Assembly (NCBI GenBank): GCA_963796455.1
Contig: CAWCLO010000007.1
Coordinates: 128,001-192,000 of the forward strand
Origin: Candidatus Sulfomarinibacteraceae bacterium
GTDB lineage: Bacteria; Acidobacteriota; Thermoanaerobaculia; Thermoanaerobaculales; Sulfomarinibacteraceae
Length of the DNA: 64,000 nucleotides
Direction of reading: 5' to 3'
Part shown: positions 5,820 to 60,790 of the stretch, one piece after another
Layout of the letters: every line of letters starts with the position of its first letter
How positions within the stretch are numbered: position 1 is the stretch's first letter
The notes under the pieces: model-generated
What the model saw: the letters and a program-made list of their open reading frames with translations, nothing else
The model's database searches: none
What the model was told of the DNA's origin: nothing
Program-made: the position numbers and the translations under genes

Positions 5820-6343
5820 CACTCTTGTCCAAGACAGTGTCTCGGACAATGATCAGGGACGGCGACAGTGATCAGCGTCAGCGACAGGCAACAGCGAACA
5901 GTGAGCAGCGACAGGGAACAGCGGTCAGCGATCGGCGGCAGCGGTCAAGACTCCAGGCGACGCAGTGGCCACCTTCGGGTCGTTCAACAGAAGGGGCCGC
6001 CACCCCGGCTTGTGGGTATGGGCATGAACGACCCGGAGGTGACCATGTCCCCAGCCGCCACGAACACCAACCTCGTTGCCCTCTCGAAAGCCCTCGAAGC
6101 AGCGGGAATCGCGATCAAGCTCGTGATGAGGGCTCCAGACCAGTCAAACGTGACGCTGACTACTGTTCGCTGACGCTGAAAACTGATCGCTGCTCACTGT
6201 CGCTGTCGCTGGACACTGTCGCTGCCGCTGCATTTCGGGATCGGGAACGGGCCTATCGCCAACGGATATGCCAACAACCAACCCGTACACCACGGGTTGT
6301 CAGGTGGGAAACTTCAAGTAACGATCTGTTTCGGACAGCAGTG
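5820..6343. mobile_element. Non-autonomous CACT-TIR element, copy 1 (deleted derivative; inner cassette inverted relative to the ends)
   Basis: Left end is cactcttgtccaagacag and right end is ctgtttcggacagcagtg, with AT on both flanks. High similarity to 45914-46764. Confidence 0.8.
6045..6173 (+). pseudogene. Four-helix-bundle protein, 5' fragment
   Basis: MSPAATNTNLVALSKALEAAGIAIKLVMRAP matches the N-terminus of 46281-46634, then runs into the repeat arm. Confidence 0.8.
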
Positions 6344-10623: not shown

Positions 10624-11290
10624 CACTCTTGGTTAAGACAGTGTGTCGAACATCGTTCAGGGACAGCGACGGGAGCCGGCGGACAGTGTCAGCGAACAGT
10701 TGTCAGCGGCGGCAACCAGCGGCCGGGGCAGCGACAGTACCAGCGAACTGCACTCACTTCGTCGGGTTCAACAGCCGCCAGGTCATCGCACGGACCTGCT
10801 CGAAGGCGTTCATCACTTCACTGACTCCGTTCCGGCTGATCGCCCCGGCGTGGGCGAGGAGCTGGAACCCTCATCACGAGCTTGATCGCGATACCTGCTG
10901 CTTCGAGGGCTTTCGAGTGGGCAACGAGGTTGGTGTTTGTGGCGGCGTTGGACATGGTCACCTCCGGGTCGTTCATGCCCTTACCCACAAGCCGGTGTGG
11001 TGGCCGATGTCAAGGATGCCCTGCACCCTGCCTGTCCTTGACATCGGCCGCCCACCGGCTACCCCTTCTTTTGAACGACCCGGAGGTGGCCACTTCGTCG
11101 CCTGGACTCCTGATCGCTGCCGCTGAACACTGATCTCTGTTCCCTGGCCCTGTCGCTGCTCCCTGTCACTGTTGCCTGTCGCTGCCGCTGCAATTCGGGA
11201 TCGGGATCGGGATCGGGTACCTGCCAACCGCCAACCGGATATGCCAATAACCAACCCAAAAATCTCTTATCGTCACGTGGGGCAACTTCA
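10624..11290 (-). mobile_element. CACT-TIR element, copy 2 (reverse orientation, internal deletion, truncated End A)
   Basis: Starts 'ggat|cactcttggttaagacag' after TGGATGC repeats. Reverse complement of 45914-46764, including the leader hairpin. Confidence 0.8.
10754..10955 (-). pseudogene. Four-helix-bundle protein with ~152-nt internal deletion
   Basis: The N-terminus (MSNAATNTNLVAHSKALEAAGIAIKLVMRVP) is joined out of frame to the C-terminal part (..LLAHAGAISRNGVSEVMNAFEQVRAMTWRLLNPTK). Confidence 0.82.
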
Positions 11291-13530: not shown

Positions 13531-13550
13531 GATAGCGATAGCGATAGCGA
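13531..13550. repeat. GATAGC hexamer tandem repeat
   Basis: gatagc x3+. The same family occurs at 43473-43507 and, as the reverse complement, at 60587-60620. Confidence 0.7.
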
Positions 13551-15479: not shown

Positions 15480-16026
15480 CACTGCTGTCCAAACCAGATC
15501 GTCACCTGAAGGTTTCCGGTTGCCTGTGCCCGTACCCGGGTCCGCGTCCGGATTTCAGCGGCAGCGACATTTATCAGCGACAGTGTTCAGCGGCAGCGAC
15601 AGGCACCAGCGAACAGGGACAGCGGCAGCGATCAGGAGTCCATGCGGCGAAAGGGCACCTCCGGGTCGTTCAACAGAAGGGCACGGCCGAATCGGAAGAG
15701 ACCGGTCGAACCACTGGAGAATCGCCTACGCCTCGGCGAAAGAGGTCGACAGCCACTTGCAGCTCCTCGCCCACGCCGGAGCGATCAGTCCGAACGGAGC
15801 CGGTGAAGCGATGAACGCCTTCGATCAAGTCCGTGCGATGACCTGGCGGCTCTTGAACCCGAAAATGTGAGCGCCGTTACCCGTCGCTGCTGTTGATAGC
15901 TGATCGCTGAGGCTGATGACTGAACGCTGACGCTGACTCCTGTTGGCTGCCGCTGACAACTGATCACTGTCGCTGTTCCCTGTCGCTGTCGCCGGACACC
16001 GTGGGGATCGGGAACGGGAACGGGAA
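15480..16026 (+). mobile_element. CACT-TIR element, copy 3 (End A present; most of the leader and 5' half of the ORF deleted)
   Basis: 'tgctggat|cactgctgtccaaaccag', CAGCGA arm, first strand of the leader stem, 3' half of the ORF, then a complementary TCGCTG arm and CGGGAA repeats. Confidence 0.8.
15676..15870 (+). pseudogene. Four-helix-bundle protein, 3' fragment
   Basis: EGHGRIGRDRSNHWRIAYASAKEVDSHLQLLAHAGAISPNGAGEAMNAFDQVRAMTWRLLNPKM matches the C-terminal half of 46281-46634. Confidence 0.82.
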
Positions 16027-19517: not shown

Positions 19518-19608
19518 GCGCGAAGTCTCCCCTTGAGGTCGGTGTCGGGGCGGCTCGTCTCGCCGCCGCAGCGATTATGCCACGGATGGCGCTGGAGCCG
19601 CAGTGAGT

Positions 19609-19800
19609 GAGGCTATGAGGCTATGAGGCTATGAGCTATGAGGCTATGGGCTATGGGCTATGGGCTATGGGCTATGGGCCGTAGGCTATTGGGCGAAAGC
19701 TTGGAGACCAGGAGCGATGGAGACCTGAGGCTCGGGCTTCAAGGACTCGACGAAGTACCTGAGCAATTCAAGCCTCAGGCCTCGGGCCACAAGCCCAAAC
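19609..19800. repeat. GGCTATG heptamer array with loosely complementary AAGCC-type units downstream
   Basis: (ga/gg)gctat repeated ~10 times at 19609-19680, and 'caagcctcaggcctcgggccacaagccc' at ~19769-19797. Confidence 0.8.
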
Positions 19801-19904
19801 CACGAGCTGTTTCATCGCGCTCGGCGCCGTCCCACTGGTATCGCCTGGTCAACCTGCGTAGAATACGCCGGGTCCACGTTGAAGATAGGCGTCGAGAGGA
19901 GATC

Positions 19905-22452
<2,548 letters not shown>

Positions 22453-22517: not shown

Positions 22518-22608
22518 TGAGGCTATGAGTGTCAACTGCCTTTCGACAATTTTGTCCGGGTCCATTGCCCCATAGCCCCATAGCCCCATAGCCCCATAGC
22601 TTAATAGC
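22518..22608. repeat. Inverted bracket GAGGCTATGAG ... (CCCATAGC)n
   Basis: atgaggctatgag at ~22518 and cccatagc x4 at ~22569-22600, between convergent genes. Confidence 0.7.
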
Positions 22609-34822: not shown

Positions 34823-34906
34823 CGCGAATTCTGAGTTCTGAGTTCGGAGTTCGTAGTTCGGAATTCCGGCCCGGTTCTCTACATTCTGCTCATTTGTACT
34901 CGCAAC

Positions 34907-35162
34907 TCTCTTGTCCAGGCCAGAGTCCTGGAAAGCAAACAGGAACAGCGAACAGCACTCACCTCTTTGGGGCTCCGGCCTCAGTGGTGCTGCCGTCTCG
35001 GCCGCACGATGTGCAGGCGAGACGCCTGCACCACCACGACTGTTCCTTCTGTTAAAAGACCTGGAGCAAATCACATCTCCAATTGGACTCCTGATCGCTG
35101 CCGCTGACCTCTGTCGCCGTCGCTGTTCCCTGCCGCTGCTGCTGTTATTTGGACGCGGACTC
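34907..35162 (-). mobile_element. Degenerate remnant of the CACT-TIR element
   Basis: 'ctcttgtccaggccag' resembles End B. 'tggactcctgatcgctgccgctga' at ~35084 is identical to ~11103 in copy 2. Confidence 0.55.
34984..35034. repeat. REP-like palindrome
   Basis: gtggtgctgccgtctcggccgcac-gat-gtgcaggcgagacgcctgcaccac, an imperfect inverted doublet. Confidence 0.65.
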
Positions 35163-43146: not shown

Positions 43147-43299
43147 CTGCCCTGTCGCTACCAACTGTCGCTGCCGCTGTAATTCGGACGCGGACACGGG
43201 CACGGGACAACTGCCAACCGGAAATGCCAAAAACCAACGCGTAAACCCCTTGTTGTCAGTTAGGTAATTGCAAATGGCGATTTGGTTTGGACAGCAGTG
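43147..43299 (-). mobile_element. Solo End A of the CACT-TIR element
   Basis: ctgtcgctgccgctg..ttcgg..ccaaccgga.atgcca..aaccaac.cgta...gttgtcag...ttggacagcagtg is colinear with 6215-6343. Confidence 0.72.
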
Positions 43300-45803: not shown

Positions 45804-46142
45804 GTCGAAATCCTCCTACATCGCAGGCGGACACAGGTTACATGGTGAATCAGGAATTAGGAATGAGGAATGAAGGAATTGGCGAGAAGGATGCAGGATG
45901 CAGGATGCAGGATCACTGCTGTCCAAAACAGAATGTCACGAAAAGTTACCCACCTGACAACACGTGGTTTACGGGTTAGTTTATGGCACATCCGGTTGGC
46001 GATTGCCCGTACCCGTTCCCGATCCCGAATTTCAGCGGCAGCGACAGTGTCCAGCGTCAGCGACAGGCAACAGCGAACAGGGACGGCGGTCAGTGTTCAG
46101 CGACGGCGAACAGCGGCAGCAGTCTGGAGTTCATGCGACGAA

Positions 46143-46282
46143 ATGGCCACCTCCGGGTCGTTCAAAGAGAGGGGTAGCCGGTGGGCGGCCGATGTCAAGG
46201 ACAGGCAGGGTGCAGGGCATCCTTGACATCGGCCGCCACACCGGCTTGTGGCAAAGGGCATGAACGACCCGGAGGTGACCAT
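46143..46282 (+). promoter_or_regulatory. Nested inverted-repeat leader occluding the SD/ATG of the four-helix-bundle gene
   Basis: 46148-46164 is the exact reverse complement of 46261-46277 (which contains GGAGG). 46184-46201 is the exact reverse complement of 46220-46237. Confidence 0.75.
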
Positions 46283-46634
46283 GTCCTCAGCCGCCACGAA
46301 CACCAACCTCGTTGCCCACTCGAAGGCCCTCGAAGCGGCAGGAATCGCGATCAAGCTCGTGATGAGGGTTCCGGCTCCGCTGAAATCCATAGCCGATCAG
46401 GTGATCCGGTCGGCAAGTTCGGTCCCTGCGAATCTGGCAGAAGGGCACGGCCGTTTCGGTAGAGACCGGTTGAACCACTGGAGAATCGCCTACGCCTCGG
46501 CCAAAGAGGTCGACAGCCACTTGCAGCTCCTCGCCCACGCCGGGGCGATCAGTGCGACAGCCGCCCGCGACGCGATGAACGCCTTCGATCAAGTCCGTGC
46601 CATGACCTGGCGGTTGTTGAACCCGACGGAGTGA
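46281..46634 (+). CDS. Four-helix-bundle protein (23S rRNA intervening-sequence protein / Avd-like family)
   Basis: 117 aa with 'IADQVIRSASSVPANLAEGHGR' and 'WRIAYASAKEV..HL' family motifs. SD ggaggt. Confidence 0.88.
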   Translation: MSSAATNTNLVAHSKALEAAGIAIKLVMRVPAPLKSIADQVIRSASSVPANLAEGHGRFGRDRLNHWRIAYASAKEVDSHLQLLAHAGAISATAARDAMNAFDQVRAMTWRLLNPTE

Positions 46635-46959
46635 TCGGTGTTGGCTGGCGCTGTCGCTGTCCCGGCCGCTGGTCGCTGCCGCTGACTCCTGTTTGCTGAC
46701 GCTGTCTGCCGTTCCCCGTCGCTGTCCCTGATCGCTGTCTGAGATGCTGTCTTGGAAAAGAGTGATGCAGGATGCACCTGAATCGTAGTTTCCCCGCGCG
46801 GCGTGTCAAGGACCGTGTGCGATGAGTCAAGAATCCTGTGACCTGGATCCTGCATCCAGGCGGGCAGGTGCGATTAATTCCTGATTCCTCAATCCTCATT
46901 CCTCATTCTCCGTTTGCTAACATGGCTCTGCGACCATTGATCGCAGCAAAGGAGCGCTC

Positions 46960-60699: not shown

Positions 60700-60790
60700 T
60701 CCTCTGCTCCTCTGCTCCTCTGCTCCTCTGCTCCTCTGCTCCTCTGCTCCTCTCTCCTCTCTGCTCCTCTGCTCCTCTGCTCCTACTCCA
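60700..60790 (+). repeat. CTCCTCTG octamer tandem array
   Basis: About 10 copies, abutting the SulP stop codon. Confidence 0.85.

Follow-up and report, generated by a model that had tools for sequence, protein, structure and literature searches.

Where the ORF-bearing intervening sequences of rRNA genes come from, and what their S23p/IVP protein does, are questions more than 25 years old; excerpts of PMC4990558 present a transposon origin and a role of the ORF in mobility as old, unproven ideas. The 64,000-nucleotide stretch of DNA analysed here (the window), from a Candidatus Sulfomarinibacteraceae bacterium, raises the question of what moves such a gene and what the gene contributes. At positions 45914-46764 of the window an ORF of this family lies between terminal inverted repeats. 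The initial annotation regarded this 851-bp unit as a new mobile-element family; its ends and 9-bp target duplication are instead those of an IS4-family insertion sequence (IS). Very probably the unit is a mobile, non-autonomous IS4 derivative carrying a passenger, similar to mobile insertion cassettes. Since the gene is carried by transposon ends whose cognate transposase can be named, its mobility and the contribution of its protein can be assayed directly, and its vehicles show a way to test whether IVS-type genes are selfish mobile DNA.

The 851-bp unit and its setting

The extent of the unit, both ends, the complementary arms, the nested hairpin and the 117-aa ORF are all as first described (Table 1). 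Profile searches identify its neighbours as a degT-like gene and a UDP-glucose dehydrogenase gene, in divergent orientation. The entire unit folds back on itself: its hexamer arms (46043-46117 and 46665-46739) are 71% complementary, and the nested hairpin has a predicted energy of -101.6 kcal/mol (z -8.9), a stability equalled in none of 200 shuffles. The hairpin is conserved across the aligned genomes of the genus. Absent from the first description were the 9-bp duplication ATGCAGGAT and the nested heptamer hairpins: the unit interrupts an arm of one such hairpin, and that hairpin is itself nested in another, older one. The outer-type heptamer unit also flanks an unrelated four-helix-bundle gene on C9 of the source genome (G000; 5.0 Mb, 90.5% complete). 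As PF05635 genes are flanked by arrays of their own, one of which shares the outer heptamer, the locus is three layers deep.

Table 1. Positions of the unit's parts, its flanking repeats and its relatives in the window
Feature	Position	Strand	Remark
Relative carrying both ends around a truncated core that is inverted with respect to them	5820..6343	-	
Relative with End B only, internal ORF deletion	10624..11281	-	
Relative with only End A, ORF without its 5' half	15480..16026	+	PF05635 E=1.4e-4, below cut-off
Member of ORF-less subfamily, End B and ORF-less centre	34906..35160 (~35160)	-	
Fragment, End A and left arm	43147..43299	-	
Outer heptamer array, GGAATTA/GGAATGA	45844..45877	+	Left hairpin arm older than the element; inverted repeat I4
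Second heptamer array, AGGATGC units	45888..45913	+	Insertion target
Left copy of 9-bp target duplication ATGCAGGAT	45905..45913	+	
End A, IRR of IS4-family IS	45914..45933	+	First 18 nt identical to L186 IRR
Subterminal spacer, possible relic of IS4 3' end	45934..46001	+	Loose alignment to L186 right end
Left hexamer arm, CCCGAT-like then CAGCGA-like units	46005..46120	+	
Nested hairpin	46137..46288 (energy given for 46130-46295)	+	Outer stem pairs with Shine-Dalgarno GGAGGT (46271-46276) and ATG
Four-helix-bundle gene, 117 aa (23S_rRNA_IVP / S23p / Avd-like)	46281..46634	+	
Right hexamer arm, TCGCTG-like, complementary to left arm	46639..46741	+	Inverted repeats I1, I2, I8
End B, IRL of IS4-family IS	46745..46764	-	CACTCTTGTCC-type end, upstream of transposase in intact ISs
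Right copy of 9-bp target duplication	46765..46773	+	
Partner arm of second heptamer hairpin	46833..46857	-	Inverted repeat I5
Partner arm of outer heptamer hairpin	46875..46911	-	Inverted repeats I4, I12

PF05635 is the sole domain detected inside the unit. Both profiles score the ORF above their curated cut-offs (PF05635, 57.3 bits against 33.8; TIGR02436, 60 bits against 24), which bears out the family assignment first made from its motifs, and phmmer returned weak matches to 2GSC (E=0.0014) and 2RLD (E=0.038). We know of no catalytic function for PF05635; family membership makes the product a putative RNA-binding protein. Records of Candidatus Sulfomarinibacteraceae (Acidobacteriota) contain the same cassette, with ~89% protein identity. 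Four unrelated PF05635 genes of G000 (C4:1278094, C1:983149, C9:2726 and C10:733004) each have inverted short-repeat arms of their own, built from units of 10, 8, 7 and 6 nt, and gene-less arrays of those kinds are found in the window at 19608-19676, 22567-22598, 60700-60782 and 13531-13548.

A search for sigma-70 promoters called none for the 117-aa ORF. A good sigma-70-like promoter (10/12) occupies the second heptamer hairpin's loop (46782-46809, minus strand) and aims into the element, antisense to the ORF. Each strand of the inner stem carries a perfect TTGACA (46193-46198 and 46223-46228); most relatives keep both, and no good -10 box accompanies them. Compensatory blocks are visible in the hairpin stems, with no excess of G-U over A-C. 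Selection on the hairpin at the RNA level was considered and rejected: G-U is not favoured and, given a loop inversion in L214, palindrome correction at the DNA level could yield the compensatory blocks.

IS4-family ends, target sites and genomic copies

Taken alone, the duplication at 45905-45913 is ambiguous, with a length between 2 and 9 bp. Nine bp is fixed by those sites of G000 that have both ends and lie outside heptamer arrays (22 of 72), where the identity of the 9-bp flanks averages 0.71, against 0.32 for 10,000 permutations, which never exceeded 0.47. At these sites every other length between 3 and 20 stayed at or below an identity of 0.32, and an apparent 2-bp duplication at AT|AT sites was discarded because the non-array sites peak at 9 bp only. 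A single one of the 22 duplications is perfect and two score 1-2 of 9. In G006, where ORF copies differ by only 2%, the duplication is exact in 11 of the 17 complete copies. The decay of ends and duplications, together with the failure to find a transposase in the G000 assembly, suggests that the burst is old in G000 and younger in G006.

Across GTDB genomes the end motif picked out at least 122 stretches, 80 of which came with flanks. Near full-length transposases are present in at least 11 distinct loci picked by this motif; the two that were profiled match NF033592 with 240-241 bits (cut-off 115), and the transposases of these partner ISs carry the YREK motif. The intact ISs measure 1344-1441 bp, have End B upstream and End A downstream of the transposase, and come from several phyla and one congener. 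Among the matches listed, five of the eight complete ISs with flanks show the 9-bp duplication (8 or 9 of 9), and three, including the G017 copy, show none. The latter copy (L186), which adjoins heptamer arrays, is the intact IS4 element of the one genome in 25 of the genus that has any. Beyond the terminal repeat, the local score of the subterminal spacer against the right end of L186 has p=0.06 in comparison with shuffles, which is not significant. The end signature CA------T and the 9-bp duplication, compared with the IS4Sa row in Table 1 of PMC2266710 (an excerpt of that paper), weakly suggest this subgroup, the signature being three letters long. Ends and duplication are thus shared with the IS4 family (NF033592), but the unit contains no transposase and is not an autonomous IS4 element.

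Searches of G000 (90.5% complete) by tblastn and with NF033592 turned up no cognate transposase, and none was found in the incomplete assemblies of G006 and G034, the other end-rich genomes. Three longer end pairs in G000 were examined as autonomous partners and are each two elements around a host gene; the single PF01609 gene of G000 lacks such ends, and two PF01609 genes of G006, which we take to be IS1380-like, are not bounded by them. The shell of the unit is very probably a non-autonomous derivative of an NF033592-type IS4-family IS. We infer that the DDE transposase of an intact IS with the same ends moved the cassette in trans, duplicating 9 bp, and that the landing sites are mostly heptamer-repeat hairpins between genes. 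Several further elements share these ends: MITEs of 150-404 bp with 9-bp duplications in other phyla (L115, L119, L120, L126 and L139) and many 388-bp MITEs in G034. Conserved QIWTAL-like codons in the IS4 transposase genes (L124:2567-3739, L134:2563-3783) resemble the right end of the IS itself.

Fifty of the 72 paired-end copies in G000 lie inside heptamer arrays. ATCCAGC-type arrays make up 0.08% of the genome, and 39 of the 92 arrays with at least three units abut an element end. The arrays are not a product of the element, as they are abundant in G015 and G031 (242 and 180 matches), genomes without the end motif. Orthologous degT-ugd spacers, sought in 25 genomes of the genus, were empty in 20 cases out of 20 (118-312 bp, against 1156 bp here); they come from 19 genomes, all of other species, and heptamer-type hairpin arms could be read by eye in 19 of the 20 spacers. 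Three further genomes of the genus have short degT-ugd gaps by coordinates. The presence/absence comparison proposed in the initial annotation, together with the 9-bp duplication, thereby upholds its view of a mobile, non-autonomous element whose sole cargo is a PF05635/TIGR02436 gene. Contigs of the same species from four sequencing runs include none that crosses the site and show no joint in agreement with the element ends; a single skip of 1004 bp, with a side of 25 letters, is too weak to use.

All five further loci that had been noted in the window are real, and all are broken, the only intact ORF of the six being that of the copy at 45914-46764. The genome-wide count of end copies, which had also been proposed, came to 266 matches to the end motif when up to 4 mismatches were allowed, where a shuffle gave 6, so that chance does not explain them. 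Ends A and B lie no more than 1 kb apart in 72 pairs, in four of which the core is inverted relative to the ends. Nucleotide similarity to the unit extends over 233 loci, or 2.1% of the genome, of which 65 contain the whole ORF, 42 part of it and 126 none, so that deleted or ORF-less loci (168/233) outnumber intact ones. There are 59 full-length copies of the PF05635 ORF, 58 of them stop-free, with a median identity of 91% to that at 46281-46634. When up to 5 mismatches are allowed, both ends flank 29 of them, while 17 retain End B alone, 5 retain End A alone and 8 have lost or lack the two. Short copies either carry internal deletions or fall in an ORF-less subfamily whose centre has been replaced (40 read of 41 listed), and one such subfamily has 84 motif matches. 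Since ORF-less and deleted copies have amplified well, transposition does not depend on the ORF in cis. The ORF-less derivatives of 340-580 bp fit the strict definition of a MITE, which the coding full unit does not. Of the 54 copies for which crude ORF calling gave a downstream neighbour, 38 have that neighbour oriented toward the cassette gene. Elsewhere in the window, the leucyl-tRNA synthetase (19638-22452) appears as two overlapping ORFs, with GGCTATG repeats at its start. HUH (Y1) transposases have six matches in G000.

The hairpin-plus-ORF core: selection, exchange and other vehicles

Among 58 copies in G000, dN is 0.047 and dS 0.375 (dN/dS 0.12). Similar ratios were obtained within four other genomes (0.10-0.16) and between genomes (0.12-0.17), and the young copies of G006 gave 0.42. 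Variants present in at least four G000 copies comprise 77 synonymous and 29 non-synonymous changes. Private variants of the ORF comprise 38 and 68 (pN/pS 0.61, p=0.037), indicating mild constraint, and include no stops, where 2.6 were expected, a difference that is not significant. The copies are also mosaic: all four gametes occur at 780 of 1127 site pairs, and linkage drops within ~30 bp, r2 falling from 0.26 to 0.03 with distance. In the 29 both-end copies, private changes per site are most frequent in the IS-derived left end (0.038), rarer at four-fold sites (0.017) and rarest in the hairpin (0.007); the core has 2-5 times fewer than the decaying IS ends, and the duplications of the same copies are only 74% identical. 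The simplest reading is that the insertions are old and their cores have been refreshed by conversion from a selected pool, gene conversion being the process we infer behind the mosaicism. Assembly polishing could mimic part of the mosaicism. Against such an artefact, other assemblies give the same dN/dS and the contigs of the four runs contain many of the same variant sites; this recurrence supports the variants themselves and not their combinations.

Close homologues are present in 26 of 201 genomes of the class, all in two families of one order, with 1 to more than 40 matches per genome; none was found in the congener G001 with this query. Ends of the form GG(C/T)TCATCCGG enclose the same hairpin and ORF in G005, G008, G014, G016, G017 and G149. 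These cassettes have 8-bp duplications and are likewise found in heptamer arrays. A G017 transposase of the ISL3 family is bounded on both sides by GG(C/T)TCATCCGG ends, with a duplication of 7/8, and two other ISL3 loci have one such end each. The ISL3-type end motif occurs in 13 of the 24 other genomes of the genus and has no match in G000, which rules out the 851-bp unit as an ISL3 derivative. The left hexamer arm of the unit aligns with the arm of the ISL3-ended cassettes of G149. In G017 (L251:948-3186) an intact ISL3 element directly adjoins an IVP cassette in a heptamer array, the two having common end motifs, an arrangement that is possibly a snapshot of how capture happens.

Trees of the ORF were built from 35 hand-picked rows, which served for the AU test, and from 81 rows. 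The IS4-ended copies group in a single clade (99/96) that falls within the ISL3-ended copies, beside those of G149, and monophyly of the ISL3-ended copies was rejected (p-AU 0.032). The order of the branches suggests that ISL3 ends preceded IS4 ends, which we grade as no more than likely because the gene is short (345 nt) and recombining. On deeper branches (G165, G087, G097 and G191) the ORF is multi-copy, with 43 matches in G165, 23 in G087 and 9 in G097. These copies lie in ragged hexamer arrays; among the loci listed, of which 15, ~14 and 7 were read in G165, G087 and G097, neither a pair of ends nor a duplication was found, and 4 of 15 copies in G165 share a sharp upstream motif. Some cassette copies of G165 are paired tail-to-tail (L331, L335, L336 and L325), and several near-identical copies of G149 (e.g. 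L283) carry a TGA early in the ORF alignment. Some internal modules recur in different species and between different types of ends, namely a hairpin variant in G006 and G018 and a small palindromic insert in G006 and G003 (seen in L054, L226, L050 and L214), which suggests exchange between species.

The cargo is probably older than its present shell: a repeat-armed unit of hexamer arms, an RBS-burying hairpin and a four-helix-bundle gene, of a type that occurs free-standing and inside 23S intervening sequences, was probably multi-copy before it had IS ends, then picked up by ISL3 ends and later moved to IS4 ends. Inserted copies would go on swapping short tracts by recombination, the pool of alleles being filtered for working protein.

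Role of the cargo and comparison with known systems

Within the reading of the unit as a mobilised IS4 derivative, we tentatively propose that the protein may work on the hairpin nucleic acid of its own cassette and thereby favour persistence or copying. One alternative, which we consider doubtful, makes the hairpin-plus-ORF core itself selfish, its protein binding its own hairpin and driving recombinational homing from copy to copy into repeat arrays with neither transposase nor reverse transcriptase (RT), the IS ends being occasional vehicles. The multi-copy cores of G165 (43), G087 (23) and G097 (9), around which no end pair or duplication was found, agree with it, as do the paucity of private changes in the core relative to the ends, its inversion in 4/72 copies, the lack of RT matches in G000, G087, G097 and G211, and a dN/dS of ~0.1-0.17 nearly everywhere measured. 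Yet no catalysis is known for this protein family, sharp ends with a 9-bp duplication explain the G000 insertions, ORF-less copies amplify too, the end-less copies may be products of end loss, and a sharp upstream motif is present in 4 of the 15 G165 copies. On this view the core would take over the ends of one unrelated IS family after another, first ISL3 and then IS4, and 23S intervening sequences would be copies that came to lie in rRNA. The converse, that an IS4 MITE captured a neighbouring repeat-flanked gene once before amplifying, that the low dN/dS stems from donor alleles and that the protein is now idle, is likewise unlikely. It would account for the buried RBS, the prevalence of deleted loci and a private pN/pS of 0.61, and the S23p gene of Coxiella, according to excerpts of PMC4990558, appears to be unexpressed and decaying; it sits poorly with the 77 to 29 ratio among shared variants, with dS of 0.375 against dN of 0.047 between copies, with ORFs intact between duplications only 74% identical, and with capture under two IS families. 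That the ends might belong to a known IS whose MITEs took up the gene once had been foreseen in the initial annotation: the IS4 ends are indeed known, but the core's occurrence in ISL3 ends and in an end-less multi-copy form, and the purifying selection on it, argue against a one-off neutral capture.

Selection at the level of the host is improbable. It supposes that a mixed pentamer is useful to the cell, so that missense subunits are harmful and null deletions harmless; missense changes are indeed purged and deletions common, the entries 2GSC and 2RLD each contain five chains, and a pentamer is described in the excerpts of PMC4990558. The homologues are nevertheless confined to 26/201 genomes of the class, at 1 to more than 40 matches each, with none found in G001, and nonsense alleles ought to be free, whereas private stops number 0 against 2.6 expected (not significant). 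Mobility through an RNA intermediate, by an Avd-like protein with an RT, is largely refuted and highly improbable. PF05635 is homologous to the Avd protein of diversity-generating retroelements (DGRs) in the portion of PMC10053308 consulted, and the whole unit folds back, but PF00078 is absent from G000 and above cut-off in one of five end-less genomes, with one match; private changes fall at A in 21/106 cases and at T in 16/106, giving no adenine signature, and terminal repeats with a 9-bp duplication are the signature of a DDE transposase. The absence of PF00078 from G000 and of adenine bias also rules out the unit's identity as a DGR or other retroelement.

As a mobilised IS4 derivative, the unit is closest to the mobile insertion cassettes, of which MIC231 is derived from IS231/IS4. 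It resembles them, as far as extracts of PMC6542083 describe them, in having IS4-family ends, in holding a passenger gene where the transposase would be and in needing an active transposase. It differs from the MIC231 type in its cargo, an IVS-type gene that brings a hairpin and repeat arms of its own, and not a host-adaptive enzyme, and in having ~60 coding copies per genome and the same cargo under two IS families. A passenger that switches IS family, occupies ~2% of the genome and is under purifying selection over ~60 redundant copies is unlike the usual neutral cargo of MITEs. The IS4 shell is therefore known in kind; the hairpin-plus-ORF core is the unexplained part. In the literature searched, which covers few subscription journals, no description of IVP genes inside IS ends was found; the accessible part of PMC5524665 only lists such genes.

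ORF-bearing 23S intervening sequences (Coxiella S23p, Leptospira, Xanthomonas 2GSC) likewise have a PF05635 ORF in a fold-back unit with short tandem repeats. That of Coxiella, in the passages seen of PMC4990558, encodes a protein of this family and has a terminal stem and upstream heptameric repeats; its ORF is decaying and probably not expressed, with a translation start that is disabled or buried. The RBS and ATG of the unit are buried likewise. Unlike the 23S inserts, the unit is intergenic and IS-bounded, and its ORF is under purifying selection while that of Coxiella decays. The only 23S gene found in G000 (3011 bp over a 2925-position model) has no insert and no PF05635 match inside, which rules out an rRNA intervening sequence. 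With DGRs the unit shares the protein family of Avd (PMC10053308, in part), but no RT was found and mutation is not adenine-biased. Similar internal tandem repeats occur in a MITE described in an extract of PMC4596501, although the unit is coding.

A taste for particular targets has parallels among other elements. REP-targeting ISs strongly prefer a palindromic intergenic repeat. The unit does so too, its targets being heptamer hairpins of the kind found around other four-helix-bundle genes.
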